Positions 12,531-36,739 of a DNA stretch of 64,000 bases are shown one piece after another. Position 1 is the stretch's first letter; the number at the start of each line of letters is the position of its first letter. The notes under the pieces are model-generated. The model was not told where the DNA came from. It saw only the letters and a program-made list of their open reading frames with translations, and searched no databases. Source of the DNA: Psychromonadaceae bacterium (lineage in GTDB: Bacteria > Pseudomonadota > Gammaproteobacteria > Enterobacterales > CBDFNC01); NCBI GenBank assembly GCA_965249895.1, contig CBDFNC010000001.1, positions 1,163,024-1,227,023 of the forward strand, given 5' to 3'. Position numbers and translations under genes: made by a program.

Positions 12531-15317
12531 TTAAAAAATGTTTATATCGCTACTCAGAGCTAAGTCATTCTCTTCGACGAGCAGAGCTAACAATTGTTGC
12601 AGAGTACGTTGTCTTTGATATACCCAGCTACTGTAGGCAAGGGGGAATAGTGTGATCCCAGTGCGCTGAAACAGTTTGTAACGCTCCAAATGATAATATT
12701 GTTGGGACTCACCCGGGTAACCGATTAAATCTATGGCCAGCAGTTTATCGCCGTATTGGCAGGCAATATCCATCTCTGCCCCTGCTATGGGATAGTTTTT
12801 CCAGGTATTCACCCCATTGAGGGTTAGTATGCGACAAACCTCCCCCTGAAAAGCATCAAATTCCGTATCTTCGCTTAGATCGAAAGTAGCGGCGCGTTCA
12901 CAGGAGTGGATGTAGTCAAATAGCAAGGTACCGGATTTTAACCGGTGAGGTGGCGCCGATAAAAACAAGTAAAGGGCATCTCTGGCCCGGGTGATGGCGA
13001 CGTTAAATACATCGGCTCTGTTCATATACTGATAAGCGTGGCCAGAGCTTTCAGGATCCACACAAAACGAGATAAGCATGATATCTCTCTCGTCACCCTG
13101 GAATCCATAAGGCGTATCGACTCTTATTTGGTGCTTCTCCAATTTGTCAGGGTAAATATGCCGGGTGAGTAGTTTGTTTAAAATTTGAACTTGTTCTCTG
13201 AACGGCGACAAAATTCCTATGCTGGGAGTAATACCTTGGCGTTCATAGGATTGCAGTATGCTGTTAAGTTTGGCAAGCACGGCTTGTGCTTCACTGCGGT
13301 TTTTGCCGTTGTTATACACGCCGTCACAAAAAATCAACTCTATTGGGTTGTCATCAACCGCAGCGGGTTTTTGACGCATTAATTTTAATTGCTGGTTATA
13401 GAATTTTTTATTACTGAATTGGATAAGCTCGGGTTTACTGCGAAAATGCTCATCCAGCATCACTATGGCAGCTTGCTCCTTGATGGCGCTGTTCACCTGC
13501 TCCATCAGGCTATTGTCACGATAACTAGGTGGTAAATGGCCAAGATCAAACTTTTTCTGCAGCTTCTGCTCTTTATCCCTGGACAAGAAAGAAACAAACT
13601 TTAATTGTTTGGGATCTCCCACTACCACAGCTCGCTTTGCTCTGTAGAGTGCAGGTATAGCTGTCGCCATATCACATTGGGTTGCCTCGTCGATGATCAC
13701 CAGATCAAAAAGCTCCCGCTTTAGGGGCAGGCTGCGATGCAACTCTCCTAAGTTGCATAACCAAACAGGCAGTGCTTGTAGCAAAATATTGTAATCAATA
13801 TTGTCGAAATGACTTTCCTGGCTACTGGAATTTCGGGCCCGGATAGCCTTGGAGTAGTGTTGTAAATGCTCTCGATTGTCTTTGAGTACCCGGCTTAGTT
13901 GTTGTTTTCGGCTGCCGTTAATAAAATTGGCCAGCATCTTTTCACGTATCCGGTTTTCCTGGCAAATTTTATCAAACTGGGTAAACAGGGAGTGGTTGTT
14001 ATGGGCATCACGTTTGGCAATATACCCTTTAAAGCGATTAAGTAAACCCGGATGTTTTAAAGCCTTATGGGTAAACTTTCCGTGGCGAATTGCCTTTTTA
14101 CAGCGCTTGAGAAAGGTTTGCTCCAGGGTGAAAATCTTTGCTTTTTGTCGGGAAACGGCTCTTTGATCAACCCTTCCTTCCTGCTCCAGAGGGGTAAAGC
14201 CGCTAAGCAAGTCCAACAGGTATTTCTTTAGCTGCGATTGTTGGCTGGCGGCGCCAGCGCGAACAATAAAATCTTTCTGGCCTATCAGTGCGGCCAACTT
14301 GGTTTGGATCACCTCAATGGCTTCATCGGTCTGACTCAGGATAAGCACGGACTCTCCCTGCAGGTAGCGCTCCAATGCAATGCACGCAATGGTATAGGAC
14401 TTTCCTGTGCCAGGAGGGCCGACAATTTGGCTCACGGCATATTCATTGGCATTAAACAATGCCTTACTTTGGGCCCTGCTCAACAACCCTGGAATATTTT
14501 CCGGTCGGGCAGGTTTCGCCGAATTTATATAGGGCAAGTGGTAATTCAGTGTTTGCCGTAATGGAATGGAGAGACTTTCAGATTTTCTTATTTTCGTTAA
14601 TTCATGTAGCGTTCCCCTGGAAGCGAGAGACTGCTTCACCAGAGTTAAACAAGCTGCAGAGATAAGTTGGAATTTACCTTCCTTGGCATTGTTTTGTTTT
14701 TCTTCTATATAGCTGGCGTTGCTTAACTTGGGATAATGATATAGTTCCAGGCAATTTATCTCTTTGGTTAAACCTGTGATCCAGTGACTGAGCTTGGCGA
14801 CATCTTTGTCAGTGATCCCCTGAAATACGAATTTAGGCTCCTGGCGTTTTTTAGCTTCTCCTTGCATCCACTTTAACAAAGGCCAGTTTATGATAGGTTT
14901 GTCTCGCGCTATGGTGAGATAGTATTCCTGCTTGTCCTGTTCAATAAGCGCAGGATAATAAATAAGCGGAGCACAGACTTTCTTATTACCCGGGTAACTG
15001 GACGGCAGTTTTCCGATAATAAAAAAGCTACCGTAAAATAAGCTTTTTTCTCTTTGATAAGTGCGAACTGCTTTACTGAGCTCTTGGGCATAGGTTCTGG
15101 GTAGCGGAAGCCGGGGTAAAAAACCTGTGACCAATTCTTCCTGGCCGGACATTAAGCGTGTGTATTCGCAATTACGACCATAAACGTTAAACAGGTTTAG
15201 ATATCTATTATCGGCTTGGTAGCAGGCTCGAAAATACCTGATGAGATTGCGGCACTCCTGCTCCGACATACATTTCCTTGTAACTGCAGAGTAACGACTA
15301 GAAAGTGTATTTTGCAA
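12531..15317 (-). CDS. SF1 (Upf1/DNA2-like) helicase with C-terminal restriction-endonuclease-like (DUF559/Vsr-like) domain
   Basis: Walker A IVGPPGTGKSYTI, motif II VIIDEATQCD and GFQGDERDIMLIS (AAA_11/AAA_12 type). C-terminal ...EMDIACQYGDKLLAIDLIGYPGE... resembles the DUF559 nuclease fold. The N-terminal ~300 aa are unassigned. Confidence 0.8.
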   Translation of the reverse strand: MQNTLSSRYSAVTRKCMSEQECRNLIRYFRACYQADNRYLNLFNVYGRNCEYTRLMSGQEELVTGFLPRLPLPRTYAQELSKAVRTYQREKSLFYGSFFIIGKLPSSYPGNKKVCAPLIYYPALIEQDKQEYYLTIARDKPIINWPLLKWMQGEAKKRQEPKFVFQGITDKDVAKLSHWITGLTKEINCLELYHYPKLSNASYIEEKQNNAKEGKFQLISAACLTLVKQSLASRGTLHELTKIRKSESLSIPLRQTLNYHLPYINSAKPARPENIPGLLSRAQSKALFNANEYAVSQIVGPPGTGKSYTIACIALERYLQGESVLILSQTDEAIEVIQTKLAALIGQKDFIVRAGAASQQSQLKKYLLDLLSGFTPLEQEGRVDQRAVSRQKAKIFTLEQTFLKRCKKAIRHGKFTHKALKHPGLLNRFKGYIAKRDAHNNHSLFTQFDKICQENRIREKMLANFINGSRKQQLSRVLKDNREHLQHYSKAIRARNSSSQESHFDNIDYNILLQALPVWLCNLGELHRSLPLKRELFDLVIIDEATQCDMATAIPALYRAKRAVVVGDPKQLKFVSFLSRDKEQKLQKKFDLGHLPPSYRDNSLMEQVNSAIKEQAAIVMLDEHFRSKPELIQFSNKKFYNQQLKLMRQKPAAVDDNPIELIFCDGVYNNGKNRSEAQAVLAKLNSILQSYERQGITPSIGILSPFREQVQILNKLLTRHIYPDKLEKHQIRVDTPYGFQGDERDIMLISFCVDPESSGHAYQYMNRADVFNVAITRARDALYLFLSAPPHRLKSGTLLFDYIHSCERAATFDLSEDTEFDAFQGEVCRILTLNGVNTWKNYPIAGAEMDIACQYGDKLLAIDLIGYPGESQQYYHLERYKLFQRTGITLFPLAYSSWVYQRQRTLQQLLALLVEENDLALSSDINIF

Positions 15318-15360: not shown

Positions 15361-15435
<75 letters not shown>

Positions 15436-17918: not shown

Positions 17919-17965
17919 GATAATTTAAAACAGACCGGACCTCTACTCGTTACCAGGAAGGATTT

Positions 17966-21460: not shown

Positions 21461-21476
21461 ATTTAATTGCGAGGAA

Positions 21477-21941: not shown

Positions 21942-22102
21942 GTAGCTGGGATCGCTACTATGACCTGCCCACTTCATCCGAGAATTTAAACGTCTATCAG
22001 GGGTTGCGCCAACAGAATTAAAGAATCTGTCCGTTTTGTACAATAGGTTGTCAAGCGAATTGCTGATACTGACTCCCACTGGTCAAATAATCGTGAGAGT
22101 AA

Positions 22103-22507: not shown

Positions 22508-22563
22508 TCAACAAATAAGCATAGGTCGCGCGAAGGCGCGACTTAATCATCTAGGCCCAAATG

Positions 22564-23037: not shown

Positions 23038-23300
23038 GCTAGGTCCTATATGTATCTTTCTATCCGGAAGCTAAGCAGACACTACACTAGCCAGTGGTCT
23101 GTGTGAAGTTTGTATGTTAATCATTGGCTTATCCTTGAGAAGGGAGGTACTTCAGCGGAAAGGTCGTTTTTTATACAAAATATCTATTTTTAGATGTGCT
23201 GCTGTTGTTTAATTTATGACATAATGCGCGCCTAATTTATCCAGCCTCGCAAATAACCATAGTGTTTAGTGGGGTTTAGCTCTCAAATCGGAATAAAACA

Positions 23301-24887
23301 TTGCTTACAACTGCGAATATCACCATGCAATTTGGCGCCAAGCCATTATTTGAAAACGTCTCAGTAAAGTTTGGCGACGGTAACCGTTATGGTCTAATCG
23401 GCGCCAATGGCTGTGGTAAATCTACCTTTATGAAGATCTTAGGTGGCGACCTGGAGCCGAGTGCCGGTAATGTCTCCAAAGATCCTAACGAGCGTATTGG
23501 TAAGTTGAAACAGGATCAGTTTGCCTATGAACAATACAGTGTTATCGACACTGTGGTCATGGGGCACAATGAACTGTGGGCAGTGAAGTCAGAGCGTGAT
23601 GCAATTTATGCGAAGGCTGACATGACCGATGAAGACGGTATTCGTGCCGGTGACTTAGAAGCTGAGTTTGCCGAGATGGATGGTTATACAGCCGAATCAC
23701 GAGCGGGCGAATTGCTGCTGGGTGTTGGCATTCCGGTTGAACAACATTATGGCCCCATGAGTGAAGTGGCACCCGGTTGGAAACTACGTGTGTTGCTGGC
23801 CCAGGCTTTGTTCTCTGAGCCAGACATCATGTTACTCGACGAACCGACCAACAACCTGGATATCAGTACCATCCGTTGGCTGGAAGATGTGTTAAAAGAA
23901 CGCAACTGCACCATGATCATCATCTCTCACGATCGCCATTTCCTAAACAGTGTGTGCACTCACATGGCTGATCTGGATTACGGTGAATTACGTTTGTTCT
24001 CTGGTAACTACGATGAGTATATGACTGCGGCGACCCAGGCCCGCGAGCGTTTGTTGTCCGATAACGCCAAGAAAAAGGCGCAGATTTCCGAATTGAAATC
24101 CTTTGTCAGCCGTTTCTCTGCCAACGCATCAAAGTCAAAGCAGGCGACCTCTCGCGCCAAGCAGATCGATAAGATCCAACTGGACGAAGTGAAGCCATCG
24201 AGCCGTCAGAATCCGTTTATTCGTTTTGACCAACAGAAAAAGCTGCATCGTCTGGCGCTTGAAGTCACGGGTCTGGGTAAAAGCTATGACGAAGAGCTCT
24301 TTTCCGGCCTGGACCTGATGGTGGAAGTGGGTGAGCGTATTGCCATCATAGGGCCTAACGGAATAGGTAAAACAACCTTATTGAAGTGTCTGGTTGGGGA
24401 TACGGAACTAACCGCGGGTAACGTTAAGTGGTCTGAAAATGCAGACATTGGTTATTATGCTCAGGATCACGCCGCAGACTTCGAACAAGATCAACTTTTG
24501 TTTGACTGGATGAGCCAGTGGAAAAATGAAGGTGATGACGAACAGGCTATTCGCAGTATCTTGGGTCGCTTACTGTTTTCACAAGATGATATTAAAAAGT
24601 CAGTTAAGGTGATCTCGGGTGGTGAGCAAGGTCGTATGTTGTTTGGTAAGCTGATCATGCAAGGCCCAAACATCATGCTGATGGATGAACCCACCAACCA
24701 CCTGGATATGGAGTCCATTGAATCTCTTAACCTGGCGCTGGAAAACTACCCGGGCACCTTAATATTTGTCAGTCATGACCGGGAGTTTGTATCTTCTCTG
24801 GCGACCCGTATTATCGAGATGACACCAAGCGGTATCGTTGATTTCCGCGGTAGCTACGACGAGTACCTGCGTAGCCAGGGCGTGTAG
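23301..24887 (+). CDS. ybiT: ABC-F family ATPase YbiT
   Basis: Two ABC cassettes. The N-terminus [53 protein letters not shown] is near-identical to E. coli YbiT (recalled from memory). Probable TTG start. Confidence 0.9.
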
Positions 24888-24918
24888 TTACACTAACCTG
24901 TGATATAAGACCTTAAAA

Positions 24919-24945
24919 ATACCCGCCTTGAGCGGGTATTTTTTC
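24919..24945 (+). terminator. rho-independent terminator of ybiT
   Basis: atacccgc-cttga-gcgggtat hairpin followed by a T-run. Confidence 0.75.
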
Positions 24946-25144
24946 GTTTTTTCATTGAGCTGGTTCGCATAAATAAAGCCAGATCATAAATTCATGATGA
25001 TAGCTTACCACTTGGGTGGATATTAATTACCGTCCAATACCGCTTCATGGAGAGTTCAGTATAAGGTTTTGTTACCCTCTCACCCCATGTGGCTGGCTCA
25101 TTAGAATAAAACAAGAAAGCCAATCCAGCTAAGTTAGTCTGAAT

Positions 25145-25831
25145 CTATCTCAAGCAGCTCCACAGGCGCTCAAACTCTCGACTGAACTTTCCAAGCAAAT
25201 CTTTGTTGTCGGTCACCAGGATATTTTCCTGGTTATATTTGCTGGCGCTGCGGGTCCAGTTAAACGAGCCGTTAAGCAGTTGTTTACCATCGAAGATTGC
25301 AAACTTGTGGTGCATATGGGCATCGGTTCTGTCCACCACAACCGGCACCCCTTTTTCAGTCAGAGCATATACGTCTGAGCCTTTGTCATTACGTTTATCA
25401 TTGTCGCTGATAATACGTACATTCACTCCACGCTGGTGGGCGCTGAACAAGGCGTCGGATAGCTGGTTATCGGAAATGGTAAATACGCACACGTCGATGC
25501 TGTTATGGGCGTTATTACACAGGCTGAGGATCCGTTGCTGGCAATCAGTGCCCGGACTAAAGCAGGCGTCAGCATCCACGCTTTCGGTAGCCGAGTTTTT
25601 ATCCAGGGTTTTAACCAGGTTTTCCAGCCACTTGATGGCGCGAAACTGCTCTTCGCTAAAGTCTCCCTGCTCCAGCAAGAGTGAAAAGGCCCGGTTGCGG
25701 ACAAAACTTATCTTATCTCTCTGGCCACTTAAGTTTTGGCCAAGCTCTGCTACCGCGACTTTTTCATCCTGAGATAGTTTCCTGTCTTCAAAGCTGCGAA
25801 TTAGCAGCTGCTCTATATCACTCTGTTGCAT
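25145..25831 (-). CDS. PLD-family (single HKD motif) nuclease-like protein
   Basis: HKD motif HMHHKFAIFDGKQLLNGSFNWTRSA (HxK...D...GSxN). 228 aa. Overlaps the stop of the upstream 1670-aa gene by 14 nt. Confidence 0.8.
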   Translation of the reverse strand: MQQSDIEQLLIRSFEDRKLSQDEKVAVAELGQNLSGQRDKISFVRNRAFSLLLEQGDFSEEQFRAIKWLENLVKTLDKNSATESVDADACFSPGTDCQQRILSLCNNAHNSIDVCVFTISDNQLSDALFSAHQRGVNVRIISDNDKRNDKGSDVYALTEKGVPVVVDRTDAHMHHKFAIFDGKQLLNGSFNWTRSASKYNQENILVTDNKDLLGKFSREFERLWSCLR

Positions 25832-28800
25832 CGGACTGCTCCTTGTTCAACGATATGCTCAACGATGACTTGCTCTTGCTGCCAGCGCGCTTAAATCTAT
25901 ATCTGGTTTGGCCCAGGGTATCGTTTATTTCCACCAGGTTAGCGTTAACATCCAGCAGCTGACTCACGGCTTTTAAGGTGACATCACCATCACCTCCCAG
26001 GGTATTGTGTTTAACAAAATCTGCCTTGATTTGCTGCCAGCGTTCGCTTTCCTGCTCTGTTTTATTGCCGCGAATTTCCGCCAGCTTTAACAGGTTTTCT
26101 TCGGCGTTGGCCCCCAGCATCTGAGCTTCTCCCAAATAATGGTCCGCAATCAGCTGCATCAACTCCTCCTGGTTCATCACAGAGGAGACTTTTTCCGCCA
26201 TCTTGTTCATATTGCGATAGCTACCCTGGAGCTTAAAGGGGGGCTCGGTGCGATATTTATCCGCCTGAGCGGCGGAGGCTATGTAGGCCAGGTTAACGCC
26301 AAGCACCACACTTTGGATCTCCAGCAATTTCTGTAATACACCTGTGACTTCGTTGAGCTCGGCTGCGCTGTAGCCATATTCCATTTCACTGGAGTCCACC
26401 TGGCCACCTTTGGCGATATCCACCAGTTTGTAGAAGTCGTCCTGTGAGCGAGTGGCCAGGGGGGCCAGCACCGCATTGGAAGTCATGGCGTTTTCCAGGT
26501 AGCTAAGGGCAAAGGCTTCATCCATACCCCCTAAGATATCCCCCAGGTTATATATATCGGCGCGGTTGGCGAGCATATCGGGGATCTGAAATGATTCCCC
26601 GGATTCCGTATAGGGGTTACCTGCCATTACCACGCAGAACTTTTTACCCCGCAAATCATAGGTCTTGGGTTGGCCCTGCCAGATCCCCTCGATACGACGG
26701 GTGCCGTCACACAGGGAGATGAACTTTTGTAAAAACTCAGGGTTGGTGTGCTGAATGTCATCCAGGTAGAGCATGACATTGTTGCTCATTTCCAGTCCCA
26801 GATTTAACTTGATAAGCTCCGAGCGGGCGGTGGCATTTGGCGCCTGCTCGGGATCCAGTGAGTCTACTTCGTGACCTATGGAGGGGCAGTTTATTTTCAT
26901 AAAAATCAGCCCCAGGCGACTGGCCACATATTCCATCAGAGTGGTTTTACCGTACCCGGGAGGTGAGATCATCATCAACAAACCCATCAAATCGGTGCGT
27001 TTGCTGTCGCCTACCGTGCCCATTTGTTTTGCCAGGTTGTCCCCTATCAGTGGCAAATAAGCGTCGTTGATCAACTTGTTACGCACAAAAGAGGAGAGGG
27101 GACGGGCCTTAAACTCTTCCAGTCTTAGTCCTGCTTTTTGCCTGCTAGTGACATCATGGCGTACCTGCAAGAAGCGTCGGTAATCTGGCAATACTTGCTG
27201 CTGGTGGCTTTCAAGGCGAAGCAAAAATTCGTCCAGGGACAGGGTCATGCTGCGGTCGTGGATCCGCTGATGGCTGCCCATCAGGCCGTTTACCTTCACT
27301 TCCAGCTCTACATCACATACCCGCCTGCTCAGTCTGCCCTCGCCGTTTATCAACGAAATAGCTTCGGGGATATAAGTGGTTAGCTGCTCCAGTTGTTGGT
27401 GGCTAGCGAGGGCCGACAGCCAGGCCTGGGTCAGGGACCAGCGGGCGCCGATTTGTCCCTTCAGTTTTTCCAGGGTGGCTTGATAGGAGTTCCAGGACTC
27501 CATATCCATCGCCCGTTTCAGCTCCTGGGCCAGCCGATCTGCGTATTTACTGGTGGAGAATACTATTGGGTCTTTGGCAAGCTCCAATACCAGGTAACTG
27601 GCCGCCAGCTTCACCTCTGTCTCGCTCAGGGGAAGTTCAAACTGCTCAACGAACTCGCTAAGGGCCGTGGTTATTTCATTCTCCAGCAATAACCTGGCGT
27701 TGCTGGAATTAAACAGGGCTTGCATGCGTAGTGCCGACTTAGCCCTTTCAATCCAGCTTTGCTGTTTAGGGGCTTGCTGACGGTTGGCCCAGTAAATGGC
27801 GGCAAATCCCCGGCACAAGGGCGGGAATTTCAGCACATCGGCGCTTCCCAGGGTGGGGAGCAGCTTTTTCAGGATAAGGGTTGCGTCGAAGTCGTGAATG
27901 CCGCGCTCATAACCTTCCTTATATCGGGGGGATGCGAAGTTTTTCACCAGTTCGTCGAGGGCCTGTTCATCACTGGCTGCCAGACGTAAAACCTCCATGG
28001 TTAAATCCTGCTCACCGGCTTGCGCCGCATCCAGGATCTGTTTCACCAGATATTCCGCGCGATATACGGTTTCTGTTTCCGACTCTATGGTTTGTTGCCA
28101 GTAAGGTTTTAGCTGGTTTAGTGCGGGATCTGTAGCGACTTCAAAAAAATCGGTGCCGGTTAAGTGGAACATCAGTTTATCCTGGCGGGGCAGCAGGGTT
28201 AGATCCAGTTCCTGGGTGTTGACGTTAAACCTGTGCCTGGGGCCCAGCTTAATGACATTACCACCTTCCTCGAAAATTTCGCTCTTATCCCGCAAGGCGC
28301 GCACGGCCTGATCTTTACTGGATTTAAGCCGGGCCTCGATATCGTCGGCCTTGACGCTGTCATCCAGCGCCATCAGTTGCTTGATTAAGTCGTGGAGTTT
28401 AAGCACCAGGGCGTCAGAGGCATAAAAGGTGTTAAGCTCATCCGCCTGGTTAAACCTCTGTACTCTGCGGCCAATACTCGACAGGATACGATCTGCGGCA
28501 TCTTTTAATGTACCGGCTTTACGCTGGCGTGCCTCCACCATACGCTGGCGATGGGTCTCAAAGGTTTCCACCACCTCTTCACGCTTGCCGAGAATATCGC
28601 TAAGGAACTGCTCCTGGTCGCTGAACTGGCTTTCCAGCTCTTCCAGTTGCACCAGCAGACGAGACAATTGATCATCGCTTTTTTCGGGTGTGGTGGCCAG
28701 GCCCAAGGCATTGGTGATGCTTTGGCTGAATAATTTAAACTGGGCAGAAAATTGTGCCAGTGCTTCCTTGCTGCCCAGGGATTGCTGCTTATGTTTAGCG

Positions 28801-30830
28801 TTGGCCTTGCTCTGGTTCAGTCGACCGTATATTTGTGAAATAGTATCGATAATACGGGTTCGCACAGTGGCGTCATGCACCTTAAGGGTAGCCATCAGCT
28901 CTGACAGCAGGTCCAGACCGGCGGACATGCTCTCCAGTTGCTCTTCTACTGGTGTCAGCTCGGCTACCGTGGTGACTTTCTCCTGTTCACGATTGAGTGA
29001 CTGTAGTTTTTTATCATAGGGCGCCAGGGACTTCTCATCCGCAAGGAAGTGCACGGTTTTCTGGCTTAACTCGTCTTCCTGCTCCGCCAGCGTAGCCTCC
29101 ATGACCTGCACTTTGACCGTGTCCATATAACGCATGGATTTAATGGTCAGCAGGTGGCCACGTTGTTTACGTAACGAGTCCAGACCTTCCACAAACTGCT
29201 CCGGCTTTTGCCAGCTGTCCGGACGCAGGCTTGCGATAATCTGGCTTTGTTGGGTTTGCGCCTGCGCCAATGCCTCTTCAGACTGGCTACGGATGGTTTC
29301 AACCTTTTCGAATTCATCCAGTACCAGCTCGGCGGTTTCCGCTACCTGATGCAGCAGTTTTTCGATGCCGCCGACCTGTTTGGCACCCATCCAATGGTAG
29401 GCGTCAAACATTCGACCGACCCGCTTGATCAGCTCCCCATAAAGTTTGCTGGACACTTGTTGATTGCCGATCATCTTAACTATGCTGTACAGCTCGGAAA
29501 TACCCCGCACCAATTCGGCATTGCCAATTTTACCGTAGAAGGAGGTTTTAGTGGGCTGCTCGCTGGCAAATTCATCGGAGCAATAGGGGGTTTGCCAGAT
29601 CTGCATAGGGTGAACCCGGGTAGGTTCGCTTTCCGCATAAAACAGCACTAAACGGCCGTCGTCCATATTGGCAAAGCCATGGCCAAACAAGGGATTGTCC
29701 AGGGCTTTATTCACCAGGTTATAGGAATAAAGGGCGACCTTACCTTCGACGGGTTCGTAAAAGGCGTACAGTACGTCTTCCCCATTGGGGCTTCTGGTGG
29801 TTCTTTTGTATTCCAGACCACTGATATCGTCATCGAAGGTTTTGTACTCGCCGCTTTGCAGGTAATAGCCACCAGGGAAGATAATGCCGTGGTTTTCAGG
29901 TAGTTGAATGCAGGAGTTGCCGATATTATCGATTCGCACCACGGCTTCGGTGTTTTTATTAAATACCAGGTAGCGCCACTGCTCTTCACGATAGGGGAGA
30001 ATTTTTAATAAGATTAATGCGCCGATCTCTGCAAAATAGAACTTGGCGTCATCCAGGGATTGGTTGTCATCAGAAACTGCTTCGCTGTATATACCCAGGC
30101 CGGAGCCGGTATTATTCTCCACCTTGATAGTCAGGTCGCCTTGGGTGGTTTCCACAAACAAGGTGTCGAGAATATTCATATGGGGGAAGCGACCGCTTAC
30201 TTCGTTTTCCCGGCTACATTCGGTCCACTCGAAATCGGTTTGGGGCGGTGGTTGTAGATCCCTGTCACCCCGGTTGTCCATATAGTCGAGGGTAAGACCG
30301 TCGCTATTGATACTCCAGCGGAACACCCGAATATCACTGAGGTTTTTACCTATTTGGAAACTGGCCAGCAGCTTGCCACCTCGTACAGTCAGGCGCAGCA
30401 GTTTAGTTTCTTTGTAATAGGTGTACAGTTCGATAAAGTCTTGCTCGAACCTGGGGTCTTTTAGGAAGGTATCCGCCAGCTCCAGGGCTCGAACTTCATA
30501 CCCTTCATCTGTTTGGTCCAGCCGGTAGAGGGCAAATACATCCTCCAGCTGAGTTTCTTTTTTTAAGCCGAGAAAAACGTTGTAACCAAACAGCAGATAG
30601 TTACCGGCACAGACGATATCTCGCGCAATACAATTGTTTTCGGTTCGCACCCGTACTCTGCCGAGTACCTGCATTTCCGCCCGGCCAAACTCGCTTAACC
30701 GCACCTGGTTTAAGGCGTTGGTTTTCTGCTCCAGCTCCTGGCTTTGTTGGTTTAAGCGATTGCGTATAACTTGATAGGCTCCGCCTGAGGCGACGGCTTC
30801 TGAATCCTGGCTTGATGACTCTTCCAGCAT
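25818..30830 (-). CDS. 1670-aa coiled-coil protein with C-terminal MoxR/McrB/dynein-like AAA+ ATPase module
   Basis: Walker A ISPPGYGKTTL (about nt 26950-26975), Walker B VMLYLDDIQ and sensor VVMAGNPY. It has an N-terminal ~500-aa beta-rich region and ~700 aa of heptad-rich helix. No named family recalled. Confidence 0.8.
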   Translation of the reverse strand: MLEESSSQDSEAVASGGAYQVIRNRLNQQSQELEQKTNALNQVRLSEFGRAEMQVLGRVRVRTENNCIARDIVCAGNYLLFGYNVFLGLKKETQLEDVFALYRLDQTDEGYEVRALELADTFLKDPRFEQDFIELYTYYKETKLLRLTVRGGKLLASFQIGKNLSDIRVFRWSINSDGLTLDYMDNRGDRDLQPPPQTDFEWTECSRENEVSGRFPHMNILDTLFVETTQGDLTIKVENNTGSGLGIYSEAVSDDNQSLDDAKFYFAEIGALILLKILPYREEQWRYLVFNKNTEAVVRIDNIGNSCIQLPENHGIIFPGGYYLQSGEYKTFDDDISGLEYKRTTRSPNGEDVLYAFYEPVEGKVALYSYNLVNKALDNPLFGHGFANMDDGRLVLFYAESEPTRVHPMQIWQTPYCSDEFASEQPTKTSFYGKIGNAELVRGISELYSIVKMIGNQQVSSKLYGELIKRVGRMFDAYHWMGAKQVGGIEKLLHQVAETAELVLDEFEKVETIRSQSEEALAQAQTQQSQIIASLRPDSWQKPEQFVEGLDSLRKQRGHLLTIKSMRYMDTVKVQVMEATLAEQEDELSQKTVHFLADEKSLAPYDKKLQSLNREQEKVTTVAELTPVEEQLESMSAGLDLLSELMATLKVHDATVRTRIIDTISQIYGRLNQSKANAKHKQQSLGSKEALAQFSAQFKLFSQSITNALGLATTPEKSDDQLSRLLVQLEELESQFSDQEQFLSDILGKREEVVETFETHRQRMVEARQRKAGTLKDAADRILSSIGRRVQRFNQADELNTFYASDALVLKLHDLIKQLMALDDSVKADDIEARLKSSKDQAVRALRDKSEIFEEGGNVIKLGPRHRFNVNTQELDLTLLPRQDKLMFHLTGTDFFEVATDPALNQLKPYWQQTIESETETVYRAEYLVKQILDAAQAGEQDLTMEVLRLAASDEQALDELVKNFASPRYKEGYERGIHDFDATLILKKLLPTLGSADVLKFPPLCRGFAAIYWANRQQAPKQQSWIERAKSALRMQALFNSSNARLLLENEITTALSEFVEQFELPLSETEVKLAASYLVLELAKDPIVFSTSKYADRLAQELKRAMDMESWNSYQATLEKLKGQIGARWSLTQAWLSALASHQQLEQLTTYIPEAISLINGEGRLSRRVCDVELEVKVNGLMGSHQRIHDRSMTLSLDEFLLRLESHQQQVLPDYRRFLQVRHDVTSRQKAGLRLEEFKARPLSSFVRNKLINDAYLPLIGDNLAKQMGTVGDSKRTDLMGLLMMISPPGYGKTTLMEYVASRLGLIFMKINCPSIGHEVDSLDPEQAPNATARSELIKLNLGLEMSNNVMLYLDDIQHTNPEFLQKFISLCDGTRRIEGIWQGQPKTYDLRGKKFCVVMAGNPYTESGESFQIPDMLANRADIYNLGDILGGMDEAFALSYLENAMTSNAVLAPLATRSQDDFYKLVDIAKGGQVDSSEMEYGYSAAELNEVTGVLQKLLEIQSVVLGVNLAYIASAAQADKYRTEPPFKLQGSYRNMNKMAEKVSSVMNQEELMQLIADHYLGEAQMLGANAEENLLKLAEIRGNKTEQESERWQQIKADFVKHNTLGGDGDVTLKAVSQLLDVNANLVEINDTLGQTRYRFKRAGSKSKSSLSISLNKEQSDATE

Positions 30831-30849
30831 TGTTCTTCCTTATATCCCG

Positions 30850-30871
30850 GCAAACTCGGCGCCGAGTTTGC
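30850..30871. promoter_or_regulatory. perfect 22-bp palindrome between the flotillin and giant ATPase genes
   Basis: gcaaactcggcgccgagtttgc, 20 nt upstream of the giant-gene ATG, with no T-run following. Confidence 0.5.
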
Positions 30872-30904
30872 TGGGGTTAATGGGGTAAAAAGTCAGCTAG
30901 CGAA

Positions 30905-33097
30905 TTAGCTGGAAGTGGTTTCACCGTTAAGCTTGGTGGTTTTGCTGTCTTTATCGAGCAGCTCACCTAAGATATCGGCTGGACTTCTGTCACCTTCTTT
31001 ACCGCCCAGGAATTTATTTAACATGGCATGTACCGCAGGACTTTTCTCCACCAGGCCATTGATGGACTTACCCACTGTGAGAGATTTCACCAGGGAATTA
31101 AAGTAGTCCCCCTGGCCGCCCACAATATCGATATTGGCGTTTTTCAGTGCTGCAGCCAGGACGTCGGCTTGTTCAACGGCAATATGTTTATTGGCTTCGA
31201 TGGAAAGTACGGCTTGCTCGAACTCTTTTTCCAGTTTCATACGGAACTCTTCGTGTTCGCGAGAATCTGCCGTCATGGTGGCCATGGCATTAAATTTCTC
31301 GATAAGGCCTTCGGCTTCCGCTTTAAACTTGGCGTTAACCACTTCCGCTTGCGCCATACCTTGTTCACGTTCGGCTTTTGCCTGGGCCAGGCCAATTTGC
31401 TCGTCACCGTGAGCCTGCGCCGCTAGTTTCTGCTCCAACACTTTGGCTTGTGCCAGGCCTTGCTCTCTGTCTGCCTTGGCTTTGGCTAAACCAATTTGCT
31501 CATCACCCGTGGCCTGGGCGCTTAGCTTCTCTTCCAGTACCTTAGCTTGAGCAAGACCTTCTTTTTCGTTGGCAATGGCATGTGCTTCGATAATTTTCGC
31601 CTTGGCCAGACCTTGTTGCTCGTCACCCTGAGCCTGAGCCAGCATCTTCTGCTCCAGCACTTTAGCCTCGGCTATCCCTTGTTTTTCCAGTGCGTCGGCC
31701 TGGGCTTCTTTGACGCGGGCATCGGCGAGGCCTGGTGCAGATTGCTCGGCTTCGATACCTTCAGCCATCTTCTTCTTGGCATCTGCTTGTTTGGCCGCGG
31801 CTTCCAGCTCGGCCTGAGCCATAATATTTATTTTTTGCGCCTCGTGCTTGGCTTTGATTTCATCGGCTTCGGCTTGCTTGACCTGTTTCACAAGCTCTTC
31901 TTCCGCATCAGCTTCGGCTTGCAGGACGGTGACTTGCTTGGCCCGTTCGGCTTTTGATATTTCGCGGACTTCTTTAATCAGCTCTTCCTCTTCGGCGACG
32001 GTTTTTTCAACGGCAATACGTTCACGAATGACATTGGCGATCTCTTTTTTCTCGCCTTCTAGCGCCCGTTCTTTTTCGATTTCTTGAAGCTCTACCTCGC
32101 GTTCGCGGGATACCACTTCCAGATCTTTGGCTCTTTGTACCCGCTCTTGCTCTACGCCGATGGCGCGCTCCCGGCCTTGCTGTGCCACTTCGATTTCACG
32201 CTGCATATTTTCCTGCTGGATGGCGATTTCCTGCTCCGTGGCGATGCGGGCGGTTTCGGATTTTAACCGTTCTTCTTCTGCTACTTTTTTCGCTTCAGCC
32301 TCTTCCCTGGCATTTATGGTGGCGATTTCTCGTTGCTGTTTGGCAAGGGCCTCTTTTTCCTGGCGATCAAGCGCCAGCAGGTGCTCCTGCGTTTCTACGT
32401 CTTTTTTCTTGATGGCGCGCTGCTCATCACGCACCAGGTTATTGGTTTTGATATTTTCCTGGGCGGTGACTTCGGTAATCTTACGAATACCTTCGGCATC
32501 CATAATATTGTTGGGATCCAGGGCGTTTTTCGGTGTTTGCTCCAGATAATCTATGGCTACGTCTTCCAGCACATAACCGTTCAGGTCGTCACCGATAGTC
32601 TTGACGATTTCATCACGGAAAAAGGCGCGCTCTTCAAACAGCTGCAGGAAGTTCATTTTCTTGCCCACTGTTTTCAGTGCTTCGGAAAATTTGGCGTTAA
32701 ATAGTTCATTCACCGCTGTTTTATCGGAGGCGCGCTCGGCGCCGATAGATTTAGCCACCTGTAACACGTCTTCTGCGGTTTCGTTTACCCGTAAATAAAA
32801 GGCTACTGTAATGTCGGCGCGAATATTATCGGCGCAGATCAGGCCATCATTGCTTCTTCGATCCACTTCCAGGGTGATCAGGGAAATACGCATAAACTCT
32901 TTCTTGTGAATAATGGGCAGTACCAATGAACCGGTAAACTTCACTTTCGGAGTGGGGGACATGTCATTCACAATCAGGGCTGTACCCTGAGGGACCTTGG
33001 TATAAAAAGCTTTGAATAGTCCGGCTATGCCCAGCAAGACAAGAAAAAAGATGCCAATACCAAAGACGATTGGTAGTAATGCAGCTACATCTATCAT
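30905..33097 (-). CDS. flotillin / SPFH (band 7) family protein, YqiK/FloT-like
   Basis: N-terminal TM helix, an SPFH domain, and a ~400-aa Ala/Glu/Gln-rich coiled coil with internal repeats (GLAQAKVLEQKLAAQAHGDEQIG). Confidence 0.85.
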   Translation of the reverse strand: MIDVAALLPIVFGIGIFFLVLLGIAGLFKAFYTKVPQGTALIVNDMSPTPKVKFTGSLVLPIIHKKEFMRISLITLEVDRRSNDGLICADNIRADITVAFYLRVNETAEDVLQVAKSIGAERASDKTAVNELFNAKFSEALKTVGKKMNFLQLFEERAFFRDEIVKTIGDDLNGYVLEDVAIDYLEQTPKNALDPNNIMDAEGIRKITEVTAQENIKTNNLVRDEQRAIKKKDVETQEHLLALDRQEKEALAKQQREIATINAREEAEAKKVAEEERLKSETARIATEQEIAIQQENMQREIEVAQQGRERAIGVEQERVQRAKDLEVVSREREVELQEIEKERALEGEKKEIANVIRERIAVEKTVAEEEELIKEVREISKAERAKQVTVLQAEADAEEELVKQVKQAEADEIKAKHEAQKINIMAQAELEAAAKQADAKKKMAEGIEAEQSAPGLADARVKEAQADALEKQGIAEAKVLEQKMLAQAQGDEQQGLAKAKIIEAHAIANEKEGLAQAKVLEEKLSAQATGDEQIGLAKAKADREQGLAQAKVLEQKLAAQAHGDEQIGLAQAKAEREQGMAQAEVVNAKFKAEAEGLIEKFNAMATMTADSREHEEFRMKLEKEFEQAVLSIEANKHIAVEQADVLAAALKNANIDIVGGQGDYFNSLVKSLTVGKSINGLVEKSPAVHAMLNKFLGGKEGDRSPADILGELLDKDSKTTKLNGETTSS

Positions 33098-33179
33098 GTG
33101 TAAAATCCTTTATTTTTAAATCGTCGAAGGGCGTATTGCCCATAGTCTTTGTGCTGACAGTTATTGTTATTTGGTAGTT

Positions 33180-33815
33180 TTAAGGTTTTAAGAAATCTGC
33201 TTCAGAGATGACCAAATATGCGTTATCGGTAGCCTGATACTTGAGTAGCACCAGCTTGTCGCCTCGAACCAGCTGATTGGGGCTGTCTGCCCTTACTTTT
33301 AAGATCAACCCGGCGCCACCATCATCCAGCCTGGCCTCTCCAAACTCTTCATTCACTTCCCCGGTCCTCAAGGTCACTGTGCGGCCAACCAAATCGTGTT
33401 TACCGGTTGCCGAAGTTTTACGAAAAAGGGTTTTTAACGGGTTTATAAAAATTGAGGTGATAGGGCAGGCCAGGATAAAAGCGACCACTATAGTGAGGCA
33501 CCCAATCAGGGCGCTTAACCAGCCAGGTGGAATAAATGACCAAAAAAGATAAACAGTAAAGTAACTGAGCAGCCAGCCAAACAGGGTGATAAAGGTAAAT
33601 ACTATGGTAGTGGGAATGCCGTCCAGCTTTAATTTCATCAGCAGGCCGGTGAAATTGATGCCTGAGTTATCCACATCAAATTCGGTATCAAAGTCCAGAA
33701 TGTCAATATCTAGCAAACCTAACGAGGCTACGATCCAATAAAGGCAAAACAGGCCTAAGAATATGGTGTAGATCAGGGTTGGAAAAGAACTGATATTGGC
33801 CACAAAAGCATTCAT
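33180..33815 (-). CDS. NfeD-like (YqiJ-type) membrane protein with C-terminal OB-fold
   Basis: Four predicted TM helices and a C-terminal beta-rich OB-like domain (LVGRTVTLRTGEV...GLILKVRA). This is the canonical partner position upstream of a flotillin gene. Confidence 0.75.
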   Translation of the reverse strand: MNAFVANISSFPTLIYTIFLGLFCLYWIVASLGLLDIDILDFDTEFDVDNSGINFTGLLMKLKLDGIPTTIVFTFITLFGWLLSYFTVYLFWSFIPPGWLSALIGCLTIVVAFILACPITSIFINPLKTLFRKTSATGKHDLVGRTVTLRTGEVNEEFGEARLDDGGAGLILKVRADSPNQLVRGDKLVLLKYQATDNAYLVISEADFLKP

Positions 33816-34032
33816 AACAACTCCATGATGGCGCCTTTAGTTAAATAAAAAAAATCTCAAAAACTTAAAATGCTGTTTTTTATATCAATAAATCTAAAGG
33901 GGTTCAATGGTACATATGACCCTTTGTGATGTGAACATTAACGAAAGTTAATCTGAAAGACATCTTGGGTTTACCTGCTGGGTTATATAGTGAGTCCATA
34001 TCAACGCGGCAGTGAACTTAAAGAGGTAAAAG

Positions 34033-34314
34033 ATGAATATGATTTCTTCGTTAAAATCCAGGTTTGATCGCGTTAAAGCAAATTTTTTCACCACGCCGGA
34101 AGGCGGAGTGATCAGCCCATTTAAAGCGATCGTCGGCGCATTAGTTTTGACTGGATTGTTTTTATTAATGCTGCCCCTGCTTATGGTCTTGTTTGTCTTT
34201 CAGCTGGGGTTGGTTTTGGTAGGTTTAGTTGCGGCCCTATTTATGGGGTCACGGAAACCTAACGTTAGGTGGGAAAATGGAGAGAAAGTGATTAACCCTC
34301 AAGTGGGTTCTTAA
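34033..34314 (+). CDS. small hypothetical membrane protein (93 aa)
   Basis: One long hydrophobic stretch (LVLTGLFLLMLPLLMVLFVFQLGLVLVGLVAALF). No family assigned. Confidence 0.4.
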   Translation: MNMISSLKSRFDRVKANFFTTPEGGVISPFKAIVGALVLTGLFLLMLPLLMVLFVFQLGLVLVGLVAALFMGSRKPNVRWENGEKVINPQVGS

Positions 34315-34388
34315 GTTGTAGAAGTTGAGTTTTGTAGTTTTTTTAAGCATATCCTAAGTTTTTTTTGATGGTCATTGCTCGTCACCAT

Positions 34389-34815
34389 CCCTTTAACCCA
34401 CTGTACCCTGCAGTGGGTTTTTTTTATCTTCCAAAAGGGAAACTCGCAGGCTCGTGAACAACTATGCCCTTTAACCCAGAGTACCCTGCAGTGGGTTTTT
34501 TTTATCTTCCAAAAGGGAAACTCGCAGGCTCGTGAACAACTATGCCCTTTAACCCAGAGTACCCTGCAGTGGGTTTTTTTTATCTTCCAAAAGGGAAACT
34601 CGCAGGCTCGTGAACAACTATGCCCTTTAGCCCACTGTACCCTGCAGTGGGCTTTTTTTATCTTCCAAAAGGGAAACTCGCAGGCTCGTGAACAACTATG
34701 CCCTTTAACCCACTGTACCCTGCAGTGGGTTTTTTTTTATCTTCGAAAAGGGAAACTCGCAGGCTCGTGAACAACTATGCCCTTTAACCCACTGTACCCT
34801 GCTGATTTTTTTGGA
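34389..34815 (+). repeat. 78-bp tandem array (5 full + 1 partial unit), each unit a stem-loop plus an intrinsic-terminator hairpin; candidate tandem sRNA genes
   Basis: Unit: ccctttaa-CCCACTG-taccctg-CAGTGGG-T8-atcttcc-AAAGGG-(31 nt)-CCCTTT. Units start at 34389, 34467, 34545, 34623, 34701 and 34780. Unit 4 has a compensatory change that extends the stem (gcccactg...cagtgggc). Confidence 0.8.
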
Positions 34816-34893
34816 ACCAATCATAACAAAGGATGTTGGGTAACAATTGCCGGGTTGGCTGTAGGAGCGGATGCCTCTCTATAAGTGAAGAGG

Positions 34894-35012
34894 GCGAAGC
34901 CTGTGCCGGCAAGGTTCGCCGAACGCGCATCCATGCATTTAACATCTCATTCCTGAGATGGGTTCGGCGCCTACCAATCCTGCTGGAGCTGTTACCCAGA
35001 TTTGATAGGTAC
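34894..35012. repeat. dispersed ~120-bp structured repeat, copy 1
   Basis: About 85% identical to 45632..45750. Nested hairpins GCCGAAC...CATCTCA-ttcc-TGAGATG...GTTCGGC. Confidence 0.75.
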
Positions 35013-35248
35013 CGTTTTTTCTATCCTTCAAAATGAAAGCTTGCGGCTCGTGAATCGCTACGTCTTTACCCGTTATTTTTTACCGTTTTTTTTAAACATT
35101 AAAAAGAACTGAGTGAAAGTCCTCGTATTCTCAACTGCTAGCGTAAAGATCAAATAAATATAAAATTTAGATCACGCAATGGGAGATCCGAGCTGGTATA
35201 GCTACCACTAATAATGCTATTGATGATAATGTTTTTAGTTCGCTGTAA

Positions 35249-36739
35249 TTGATTCTTAAATGCAGAATTGTTTGTGGGGATATACGTTGGATGCAGATAA
35301 AACGTATTAAGCTCGGCATAGTGCTTTTTCCTATAGGGCTGTTATTAATTATTTTGTTAAACCCTTTAGGTTTACGAACCGCGGCCGAAAAGCACAGTGA
35401 AGACCTTGCTATCAGCTTTTATGCACCTTGGCATCCTGCCGGTGCACGACAAGATATAACAGTCATATTGCTTGACGATGCTTTCTTGCAACAATATTCC
35501 AGAAAGTATCCAGTTCCTTATCGTGACTTATCACATTTACTTAAGGTGATTGGCCATTTTCAACCAAAGGCTGTGTTTTTTGATTTGCTGCAGCATTATG
35601 AACACTCCAAAGGGGTAGAGCGTTGGCTGCGTCGGCTCAAGCAAGCTCCTTACCCCGTATATCTCGCCAGTAACGTTTCCTATGATACTGAAGCGGTAAT
35701 GAAGGACCCTTTGTCTTTGCGCAGCAGACTCAACAATGTGGCCGAATTTACTGCAATAAGCTGGAGTGGACAGCAACATTATTATCCACTGTTTGTTGAC
35801 TGGAACCAGCAAGAGTTACCAACAGCCGCCATGTCGTTATATCAGACTTGGTGCAGGGAAACGCCATCTCGTTGTAAAAACAAAATTCAGCAAATACAAG
35901 ATGTTAAGCTGTTTTCTGAACCTATGATTGTTCGTTGGAGTAATCAATATGATCAGCGGCAAGCTGTTTTTTTGCGGTTGAGCCAAGCTTGTCAGAATAT
36001 CGAAAGAAGTAAGCTGGCACAATTATGGGCAGCCATCAGATCGCACTTAGAATATGGGTTTACTTCCTACGGCAAGCGTCAGGAGACAAACCGTCATCCT
36101 TGCCCTCCTGTACTGGCCGTTTCTGCGACCAAATTGTTTGCCGCGGGTTCGCTGGCATCTAAAGATCTTGTCTATGCACTTAAAGACCGAATGGTTCTCG
36201 TCGGTTATAACCTGCAAGGTGCTCCTGATATGGTTAGATCCCCGGTTAACGGCTCGTTATCTGGGGTGTTTTACCATGCCGTCGCGCTGGACAACCTGAT
36301 TAACTTTGGTGATAAGTACTGGCATGTATCCCCGTCTATCGAAGGGTTTGGCGTTAATCTCAGTGATGTTTTAGAGGGCCTGCTTCAGGCCCTTGTCTTG
36401 CTTATCGTAACCCTTTATCGCTATCAAAACGATGGAAGTGAGCTTGGTACTGCAGATGAGGATAAAGTACCTCGTATTTGGCTTATTTCATTGTTTTCAT
36501 TATTGCTTGGAGCCCTGTGTTTGGTTTGGGTCTCGCACTATATATTCAGCCTTGGTCCGGTGAATTGGTACGTATTTTTAATTATCGTCGCAATGGCGGC
36601 GCCTACCCTGCTTGGCAACCTCATCAAAGGCAGGTTAACCCGCTTTTTTGATGTGTTGAAGAAATATCGTATTACATGGATTAGGGCACTGAAGAAGCGC
36701 ACAGCAAAACTTTTTGAAAATTCAACCAGAGTGGAGTGA
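35249..36739 (+). CDS. CHASE2 domain membrane protein without a recognisable output domain
   Basis: The N-terminal TM helix, the periplasmic region DITVILLDDAFLQQYSRKYPVPYRDLSHLLKVIGHFQPKAVFFDLL and the C-terminal TM helices fit CHASE2 architecture. Confidence 0.6.
   Translation: MILKCRIVCGDIRWMQIKRIKLGIVLFPIGLLLIILLNPLGLRTAAEKHSEDLAISFYAPWHPAGARQDITVILLDDAFLQQYSRKYPVPYRDLSHLLKVIGHFQPKAVFFDLLQHYEHSKGVERWLRRLKQAPYPVYLASNVSYDTEAVMKDPLSLRSRLNNVAEFTAISWSGQQHYYPLFVDWNQQELPTAAMSLYQTWCRETPSRCKNKIQQIQDVKLFSEPMIVRWSNQYDQRQAVFLRLSQACQNIERSKLAQLWAAIRSHLEYGFTSYGKRQETNRHPCPPVLAVSATKLFAAGSLASKDLVYALKDRMVLVGYNLQGAPDMVRSPVNGSLSGVFYHAVALDNLINFGDKYWHVSPSIEGFGVNLSDVLEGLLQALVLLIVTLYRYQNDGSELGTADEDKVPRIWLISLFSLLLGALCLVWVSHYIFSLGPVNWYVFLIIVAMAAPTLLGNLIKGRLTRFFDVLKKYRITWIRALKKRTAKLFENSTRVE

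Follow-up and report, generated by a model that had tools for sequence, protein, structure and literature searches.

The window analysed here is the whole 64,000-nucleotide (nt) stretch of a Psychromonadaceae bacterium (NCBI GenBank assembly GCA_965249895.1, contig CBDFNC010000001.1, positions 1,163,024 to 1,227,023 of the forward strand), and all coordinates below are counted from its first letter. At 25145–33815 it carries a block of four genes, all on the minus strand and in the same direction, which encode a small membrane protein, a flotillin, a giant ATPase, and a phospholipase D (PLD)-type protein. A preliminary description of this block, made from the sequence alone, had read it as a candidate novel membrane-associated defence or nucleic acid surveillance system. 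The positions, gaps, overlap, and motifs given there were all confirmed, and the co-directional arrangement of the four genes, with gaps of 82 nt between genes 1 and 2 and 74 nt between genes 2 and 3 and an overlap of genes 3 and 4, was reproduced from the open reading frame coordinates. The genes and their counterparts in the bac operon of Pseudomonas aeruginosa (described below) are as follows:

33180..33815, minus strand: gene 1, 211 residues, YqiJ/short-NfeD-like inner-membrane protein; counterpart of BacC (PA3730)
30905..33097, minus strand: gene 2, 730 residues, flotillin/YqiK-type SPFH scaffold; counterpart of BacD (PA3729, PaFlo3)
25818..30830, minus strand: gene 3, 1670 residues, soluble DUF3686-family ATPase; counterpart of BacE (PA3728)
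25818..25831, minus strand: overlap of the gene 3 stop and the gene 4 start, 14 nt, ATGCAACAGAGTGA
25145..25831, minus strand: gene 4, 228 residues, cytoplasmic PLD with a single HKD motif, Nuc/Zucchini(PLD6) clade; counterpart of BacF by gene order

The 14-nt overlap suggests that genes 3 and 4 may be translationally coupled. The junction of the ATPase and PLD genes is likewise tight elsewhere, with a 1-nt gap in P. paraeruginosa and an 18-nt gap in Marilutibacter. The G+C content is 0.50–0.54 within the four-gene block and 0.41–0.47 in the flanks. The boundaries described earlier, namely an ABC-F (YbiT-like) gene with a terminator hairpin downstream and a repeat-rich spacer upstream, were both found.

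The protein encoded by gene 1 contains three hydrophobic stretches (residues 10–40, 66–91, and 93–128), which correspond to 3 to 4 transmembrane segments by hydropathy, followed by a C-terminal β-rich domain. The four transmembrane helices counted originally are thus possible, and the count given in the literature for proteins of this type is 3. The probable assignment to the NfeD/YqiJ-like proteins comes from a family profile: a profile hidden Markov model (HMM) built from 59 homologues aligned with Escherichia coli YqiJ co-linearly and nearly end to end (25 bits; hhalign probability 86%). The relationship was visible only with this family profile; pairwise BLAST between gene 1 and YqiJ gave no match, Pfam gave no NfeD or DUF1449 match, and a sequence search of solved structures returned nothing usable.

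Gene 2 encodes a protein with one N-terminal transmembrane segment (hydropathy) and a long helical repeat region (residues 230–610) composed of 19% Ala, 19% Glu, 11% Lys, and 10% Gln. BLASTP aligned it with E. coli YqiK (E 4e-39, 27% identity over 463 residues). The alignment starts at residue 1 and therefore spans the membrane anchor and the SPFH region, with residues 1–200 of gene 2 aligning to the transmembrane and SPFH region of YqiK. The YqiK match and the composition bear out the earlier description of a flotillin/YqiK-like protein with a transmembrane segment and Ala/Glu/Gln-rich repeats. The Pfam Band_7 model gave no match even at E 1; among solved structures only a weak match to the QmcA coiled coil was found, and overall the coiled coil matched FloT and QmcA weakly. 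An NCBIfam scan of genes 1–3 gave nothing above noise.

The protein encoded by gene 3 has no transmembrane segment by hydropathy and is laid out as an N-terminal helix, a β-propeller, about 800 residues of predicted helices that include a DUF7902 domain, and a C-terminal AAA+ module. Pfam matches comprised DUF3686 (E 3e-197, residues 32–479), DUF7902 (residues 601–683), and AAA and AAA_5 (residues 1285–1410); both of the latter were above the cut-offs, AAA at 5e-6 (27.4 bits) and AAA_5, marginally, at 2e-5 (25.1 bits). The mapped elements are listed here, with AlphaFold2 confidence given as the predicted local distance difference test (pLDDT) and predicted template modelling (pTM) scores:

29592..30671, minus strand: β-propeller, residues ~54–413, within DUF3686 (AlphaFold2 pLDDT 82, pTM 0.74)
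26601..26978, minus strand: AAA+ core, residues 1285–1410
26940–26966, minus strand: Walker A, SPPGYGKTT, residues 1289–1297
26757–26774, minus strand: Walker B, MLYLDD, residues 1353–1358
26610–26633, minus strand: sensor 1, VVMAGNPY, residues 1400–1407

In the AlphaFold2 model of the N-terminal 560 residues, a helix is followed by the propeller and then by helices, so that the N-terminal β-rich domain of about 500 residues that had been noticed in the sequence is modelled as a β-propeller. The helical middle of roughly 700 residues, read earlier as heptad-rich, may be a coiled coil or may be an α-solenoid, which together with the propeller would give a protocoatomer-like layout. A Foldseek search of the propeller against the PDB returned WD40-type folds (DCAF1, 5e-7; also IFT-A, ROD, Ski8, and the clathrin N-terminal domain). 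The motifs of the AAA+ module lie at the residues reported earlier, and its designation as AAA_5-type agrees with Pfam. The Walker A, Walker B, and sensor 1 motifs, an arginine after sensor 1, and the PDMLANRAD motif are invariant in 39 sequences. A model of the C-terminal 491 residues reached a pLDDT of 66; its top folds were NorQ and CbbQ of the MoxR type (E 2e-3 or worse), and MCM, Lon, RuvB, ClpX, and HslU were further weak matches. We also considered a classical-clade, Vps4-like AAA+ module acting on PspA polymers; this candidate was set aside, as the fold matches favour, weakly, the pre-sensor-1 hairpin/MoxR side. A sequence search of solved structures with gene 3 gave nothing usable.

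Gene 4 matches PLDc_2 in Pfam (E 6e-31) and carries a single HxKx4Dx6GSxN motif in a PLDc_2 domain of about 130 residues, in agreement with its first reading as a single-HKD, Nuc-type PLD:

25244–25318, minus strand: HKD motif HMHHKFAIFDGKQLLNGSFNWTRSA, residues 172–196 of gene 4

No transmembrane segment or signal peptide was found, and the N-terminal helical domain of about 90 residues has no Pfam match. The best solved relatives are the human and mouse PLD6/MitoPLD/Zucchini proteins (E 1e-27, about 40% identity over 134 residues, which spans the entire catalytic domain); the solved structures of Nuc (1e-11) and NucT (1e-8) are far more distant. Judging from these sequence comparisons, PLD6 may have some of its closest bacterial relatives in the BacF-type PLDs, and the JGI label on some gene 4 orthologues is "mitochondrial cardiolipin hydrolase." Reports on PLD6 describe a cardiolipin hydrolase as well as a single-stranded RNA endonuclease; therefore, homology does not settle whether the substrate of gene 4 is lipid or nucleic acid.

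The composition of the operon was counted in 60 related loci with at least 4.5 kilobases (kb) of flank on both sides:

gene 1 homologue: 60/60 loci
gene 2 homologue: 60/60 loci
PspA_IM30, upstream: 53/60 loci
DUF2170/CesT-like protein, upstream: 50/60 loci
rhomboid, downstream: 38/60 loci
PLD: 27/60 loci
double zinc-ribbon protein, ~180 residues: 25/60 loci
small protein, ~79 residues, with weak TerB/EF-hand similarity: 24/60 loci
superfamily 1 (SF1) helicase: 10/60 loci

Genes 1–3 form an invariant triad, found in Proteobacteria, Bacteroidota, and Actinomycetota and, judged from the ATPase, probably in Deinococcus, and in all 60 loci the gene 1 homologue lies directly upstream of the flotillin gene. 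The four genes thus behave as one conserved unit, as had been supposed, with the triad constant and the PLD present in 27 loci. In 3 of 3 annotated loci inspected, from Hymenobacter (L085), Streptomyces (L086), and the P. fluorescens megaplasmid pQBR103 (L087), the flotillin gene adjoins the ATPase gene. The gene order in Hymenobacter is Tir-chaperone, PspA, DUF1449 (the annotation at the gene 1 position), hypothetical protein, and ATPase, and that in Streptomyces is flotillin and ATPase. On pQBR103 (85440–104317 of L087) the triad directly follows a yjf-type polyamine/PspA cluster that comprises PspA, rhomboid, DUF2491, DUF350, DUF1190, and a glutathionylspermidine-synthase-like gene; this plasmid fuses two PspA operon classes that Ravi et al. 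keep apart.

The PLD gene adjoins the ATPase gene in five orders, represented by Motilimonas, Pseudomonas, Cellvibrio, Leminorella, and Marilutibacter, and the PLD orthologues beside the ATPase in Leminorella (Enterobacterales) and Marilutibacter (Xanthomonadales) are about 50% identical. In Cellvibrio, the PLD gene has the rhomboid gene of the operon on one side and the zinc-ribbon gene on the other. The rhomboid, zinc-ribbon, and TerB/EF-hand-like genes of Cellvibrio (e.g., L019 and L041) and of many Pseudomonas loci are absent from the window, and the upstream DUF2170/CesT-like and PspA genes are also missing in Motilimonas, Corallincola, and Leminorella. In Aliikangiella coralliicola (10001–10702 of L084) the PLD gene lies about 500 kb from the ATPase operon, after an uncharacterised gene of 206 residues and amid GGDEF and chemotaxis genes; the PLD is therefore kept even where its gene has lost linkage to that of the ATPase.

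These invariant partners, membrane proteins and PspA, bear on the name under which the ATPase is filed. The Pfam entry for DUF3686 reads "ATPase involved in DNA repair," the NCBI protein name is "DNA repair ATPase," and RecJ is found among the Pseudomonas neighbours, so that gene 3 could be a repair ATPase with the PLD as its nuclease partner. This is highly improbable, because the RecJ adjacency occurs only in Pseudomonas, no DNA-binding or SMC-type domain was found in gene 3 by Pfam, NCBIfam, and solved-structure searches, and the collection of papers searched yielded neither an experimental basis for the name nor any mention of DUF3686. We therefore rejected the database label as unsupported.

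The operon type has been described before. Ravi et al. 2024 (PMC11237479) defined a class of operons in which a CesT/Tir-PspA pair is combined with a band-7/flotillin protein, an AAA+ protein, and a YqiJ/YuaF protein, and in which an HKD phospholipase D takes part "in some Proteobacteria." They also noted that abbreviated operons lacking PspA are more widespread and may use a PspA encoded elsewhere. The P. aeruginosa version is bacABCDEF (Mace 2008; Wallart 2024), which runs from PA3732 down through PA3728 (PA14_16140–16200), with bacF presumably being PA3727 by gene order. The claim of novelty is thus not upheld: operons of this type, with the HKD hydrolase as an optional member, had been catalogued, and its P. 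aeruginosa representative had been studied. In P. paraeruginosa (L077) the order is DUF2170 (206 residues), PspA (231), gene 1 homologue (213), flotillin (688), ATPase (1746), and PLD (235). From this gene order, and not from a stated annotation, the ATPase is taken to be BacE and the PLD to be BacF, a provisional assignment.

Published data from P. aeruginosa describe the operon at the level of protein, transcript, and phenotype. PA3729 is a 76-kDa protein, PA3730 a 23-kDa transmembrane protein, and PA3731 a PspA-like protein that builds up after osmotic shock and whose mutant has biofilm, swarming, rhamnolipid, and virulence defects (PMC2587700). PA3728 is listed as an ATPase (PMC8190622). 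Biofilm formation, swarming, and virulence are lost in bacA and bacB mutants. By reverse transcription PCR, PA14_16140–16200 constitutes one six-gene operon; mutation of bacA raises BacB–F 6–13-fold, and bacA has been proposed to have a sigma-54 site (PMC10948618). PA14_16180 is PaFlo3, and its partner is the "short NfeD" PA14_16160 (PMC13086221). The genes PA3728–PA3732 are upregulated in phage-infected P. aeruginosa.

We consider it probable (about 0.6) that the block is an abbreviated PspA-associated flotillin/AAA+ operon, with genes orthologous to bacC-bacD-bacE-bacF, and serves as an inner-membrane stress or remodelling machine. From the gene identities, the conservation of the operon, and the published co-transcription, induction, and mutant phenotypes in P. 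aeruginosa, we infer the following scheme of physical interactions and of substrates for the ATPase and the PLD. Together, the flotillin and the YqiJ-like membrane protein would form an SPFH scaffold or cage at the inner membrane, on its cytoplasmic side, and the soluble ATPase would dock on this scaffold through its β-propeller and helical region and oligomerise via its MoxR-type AAA+ module. ATP would be spent on assembling, disassembling, or remodelling the scaffold, or on PspA-type polymers encoded elsewhere. The PLD6-like HKD enzyme, probably coupled in translation, could add a phosphodiesterase step at this scaffold, in which either nucleic acid would be cleaved or phospholipid or cardiolipin would be hydrolysed locally. 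A rhomboid might act at the same site in other taxa, with PspA as a frequent partner. Envelope stress would switch the system on, and phage infection would be one such stress.

Several points weigh against this interpretation. (i) PspA and CesT-like genes were not found in the 64-kb window by tblastn, and the sigma-54 (−24/−12) consensus TGGCAC-N4-6-TTGCW had no match anywhere in the window; without these elements, the regulation and partners of the block may differ from those in P. aeruginosa. (ii) The published P. aeruginosa mutant phenotypes cover bacA, bacB, and PaFlo3 only, and deletion of paFlo3 (bacD) in PA14 lowered biofilm formation by only about 20% (PMC13086221). (iii) The placement of the AAA+ module in the MoxR/AAA_5 clade is tentative, the model being of moderate quality (pLDDT 66). 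(iv) Zucchini, Nuc, and NucT, the closest solved relatives of gene 4, include proven nucleases. (v) A Mokosh-like SF1 helicase gene is present in 10 of the 27 PLD-bearing loci, directly after the PLD gene and never without it, a pairing that a purely lipid or membrane role leaves unexplained.

The spread of the ATPase family bears on the function proposed in the preliminary description. Homologues of gene 3 occur in more than 570 species representatives, and the family falls into at least 7159 clusters when grouped at 90% identity but is covered by only 786 representatives at 50%, with complete members almost all 1600–1900 residues long. The best matches are from Motilimonas (76%–78% identity). 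Across gammaproteobacterial orders the ATPase is 57%–61% identical over its full length to those of Cellvibrionaceae, Hahella, and Pseudomonas, and in Deinococcus, Streptomyces, Nonomuraea, and Hymenobacter the identity is 39%–49% over about 1600 residues. Judged from these alignments, the family is compact and slowly evolving, and its conservation across four phyla is unusually strong.

We regard as unlikely a dedicated anti-phage or anti-plasmid system, in which the flotillin-anchored ATPase would sense DNA or phage and license the PLD as a nuclease effector. The phage-induced expression of the P. aeruginosa homologues, the apparent translational coupling of the ATPase and PLD genes, the helicase found after the PLD gene in 10 of 27 loci, and the position of the PLD in the Nuc/Zucchini clade would fit such a system, and gene 4 does match PADLOC models of defence proteins (DrmC, 5e-13; MkoB, 4e-9; MkoC; and DpdK), although these matches are weak and partial and cover the catalytic core only. 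However, the PADLOC v2 models gave no match for genes 1–3, and the ATPase does not evolve like fast-evolving defence genes. Copies of the ATPase were found in 0 of 50,697 phage records and in 13 of 72,556 plasmid records, the latter mostly chromosomes, chromids, or megaplasmids, and megablast of the whole block against plasmids gave no match. The PLD, the effector in this view, is optional and absent from 33 of the 60 loci, whereas PspA is present in 53, and the known phenotypes concern biofilm, swarming, and virulence.

The genomic position points in the same direction, in part. A fixed, syntenic position in all relatives had been named at the outset as evidence that would speak against a defence role. 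Within lineages this largely holds, the block being syntenic and flanked by housekeeping genes. On one side, histidine kinase and lactonase genes are common to the window and Motilimonas, as is the helicase gene on the other side; the Pseudomonas loci have CoA-transferase, RecJ, YaeQ, and amylase-family neighbours in common. Across genera, by contrast, the flanks of the block differ. On the loci, models, and records compared here, the block is a real, conserved, and already catalogued operon, and the label of a defence system is not justified.

The rhomboid gene that follows the ATPase gene in 38 of the 60 loci suggests another role, in which the SPFH proteins would form the cage of a membrane proteostasis hub, like HflK/C-FtsH or SLP2-PARL-YME1L, and the AAA+ protein would act as an unfoldase or extractor that feeds rhomboid or other proteases. 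SPFH cages holding AAA+ proteases are established for HflK/C-FtsH, and the fold matches of the AAA+ module include Lon, ClpX, and HslU. These fold matches are weak and generic, however, no protease domain was found in gene 3 by Pfam, a rhomboid gene is lacking both in the window and in Motilimonas, and the PLD would be left unexplained; such a hub is therefore rather improbable as the function of the block. The HflK/C-FtsH structure is cited in PMC13086221. The combination of SPFH, rhomboid, and AAA+ proteins recalls the mitochondrial SLP2-PARL-YME1L hub.

The helicase that accompanies the PLD elsewhere is present in the window, displaced from gene 4:

12531..15317, minus strand: superfamily 1B (SF1B; Upf1/Sen1-like) helicase, 928 residues, with a C-terminal restriction endonuclease-like domain; Pfam AAA_11/AAA_12 and MTES_1575

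Its PADLOC matches were MkoC (1e-43), MkoA (2.5e-37), and Hhe, and its relatives in the PDB are Sen1, DNA2, and Upf1. Only the helicase core matches MkoA; the N- and C-terminal domains differ. The helicase gene is located directly 3′ of the PLD gene in Motilimonas and seven Pseudomonas-group loci, whereas the two are 9.8 kb apart in the window, with unrelated genes (15318–25144) in between. With the two genes adjacent in Motilimonas, the intervening segment looks like an insertion or rearrangement. It encodes 5′-nucleotidase, ASCH, glyoxalase, and NYN-domain proteins, the ABC-F protein, and a UvrD-type helicase of 943 residues with Top1-type zinc ribbons, which gave generic PADLOC matches to GajB and DRT helicases.

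The PLD and the SF1B helicase could thus constitute a separate nucleic acid-processing pair, Mokosh-like or PLD6/MOV10L1-like, that merely lies beside the operon. In all 10 loci with the helicase it occurs only where the PLD is and directly after it; the best PADLOC models of the helicase are MkoC and MkoA, and the PLD matches MkoB, MkoC, and PLD6. Mokosh pairs a helicase with a PLD, and MOV10L1 and PLD6 have been proposed to derive from it (bioRxiv 10.1101/2022.12.12.520048), and the unlinked PLD of Aliikangiella shows that the PLD can stand apart from the ATPase. Nevertheless, we consider this separation unlikely. In the remaining 17 of the 27 loci with a PLD, no such helicase lies within 10 kb; the ATPase and PLD genes overlap or lie end to end in the window, P. 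paraeruginosa, and Marilutibacter; and in Cellvibrio it sits inside the operon between the rhomboid and zinc-ribbon genes. In addition, PA14_16200 (bacF, whose identity as the PLD derives from the L077 gene order) is co-transcribed and co-regulated with BacB–E, and the match of the helicase to MkoA is confined to the core.

It is also conceivable, though improbable, that the BacF-type PLD and the Upf1-like helicase found after it in about one in three PLD-bearing loci are the closest bacterial counterpart of the PLD6/MOV10L1 pair of the mitochondrial membrane; the flotillin/ATPase scaffold would then tether and gate an RNA or DNA endonuclease at the inner membrane when phage infection puts the envelope under stress. 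If true, a Psp-like stress response would contain a membrane-coupled nucleic acid surveillance arm, PLD6 would have a bacterial origin other than Mokosh, and the preliminary description would be partly vindicated.

The remaining features flank the four-gene block and are listed here:

23301–24887: ABC-F (YbiT-like) gene, convergent with gene 4
24915..24943, bidirectional: terminator-like hairpin with a 12-bp stem between an A-run and a T-run, located between gene 4 and the convergent ABC-F gene
33907..33935, minus strand: sigma-70-like promoter candidate, TTCACA-17-TACCAT, ~90 nt 5′ of gene 1; a weak consensus match, which does not by itself indicate function

Upstream of gene 1 and divergent from it, a small open reading frame of 93 residues with a strongly hydrophobic core (34033–34314, plus strand) lies just before an array of about six tandem copies of a 78-nt unit (34311–34860, plus strand). 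Each unit consists of a box, GGCTCGTGAACAACTATGCCCTT, followed by a perfect hairpin, AACCCACTGTACCCTGCAGTGGGTT, and a T-run, and on its sequence it looks like a terminator or a small RNA. An Rfam scan of 24000–36000 found no family that reached the gathering score. The repeat hairpin was found in 0 of 84 related loci, and we dropped it as a candidate operon-linked regulatory RNA because it is conserved in no related locus.

Flotillins and PspA/ESCRT-III-like proteins have been much studied, and their working partners are poorly defined; the operon couples them to a giant conserved ATPase. In Proteobacteria it also brings in a close relative of PLD6, whose substrate, lipid or RNA, has long been debated. 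Because it unites a flotillin and an AAA+ motor with an enzyme resembling PLD6, a genetically tractable bacterial system of this kind could help to explain the remodelling of SPFH scaffolds and the role of this PLD clade at membranes.

Comparison with known systems reveals both shared and distinct features. The AAA+ module resembles those of the MoxR AAA+ proteins (NorQ, CbbQ, and RavA) in its AAA_5 match and its top folds, NorQ and CbbQ, and the NP...PDMLANRAD segment after sensor 1 resembles the MoxR "P..L.DRF" motif. Gene 3 differs in that (i) its N-terminus, with the propeller and helices, is longer by about 1300 residues; (ii) the operon has no VWA partner gene; and (iii) the fold match is weak (E 2e-3, template modelling (TM) score 0.2–0.4). 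The catalytic core of the PLD weakly matches DISARM DrmC and the Mokosh proteins MkoB and MkoC, and the core of the helicase matches MkoC and MkoA (in Mokosh, MkoA is the helicase, MkoB the PLD, and MkoC a fusion). By contrast, the helicase of the window is 10 kb away, Mokosh and DISARM have no flotillin/AAA+ operon around the PLD, and neither DrmA/B or other DISARM genes nor Dpd genes were found among 18 neighbouring proteins scanned.

With PLD6/MitoPLD/Zucchini and Nuc/NucT, gene 4 shares the single HKD motif and the PLDc_2 fold; with PLD6 it also appears to share a membrane site of action and, sometimes, a Upf1-like helicase partner. PLD6 has an N-terminal transmembrane anchor and Nuc/NucT a signal peptide, whereas gene 4 has instead the helical domain of about 90 residues that matches no family. 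The NfeD–SPFH gene order is that of E. coli yqiJ-yqiK and Bacillus subtilis yuaF-floT, with gene 2 homologous to YqiK and gene 1 co-linear with YqiJ at the profile level; in E. coli the pair is followed by neither an ATPase gene nor a PLD gene, and YqiK has 553 residues compared with the 730 of gene 2, which contains extra Ala/Glu/Gln repeats. Relative to the bac operon, the window lacks the CesT/PspA dyad (the DUF2170/CesT-like and PspA genes) and the sigma-54 promoter consensus. The triad is present, adjacent and co-directional, as is the optional HKD/PLD protein, and the order of the orthologues (YqiJ-like protein, flotillin, DUF3686-AAA+ ATPase, and PLD) and the tight ATPase–PLD junction are the same, with the ATPases 58% identical over their full length.

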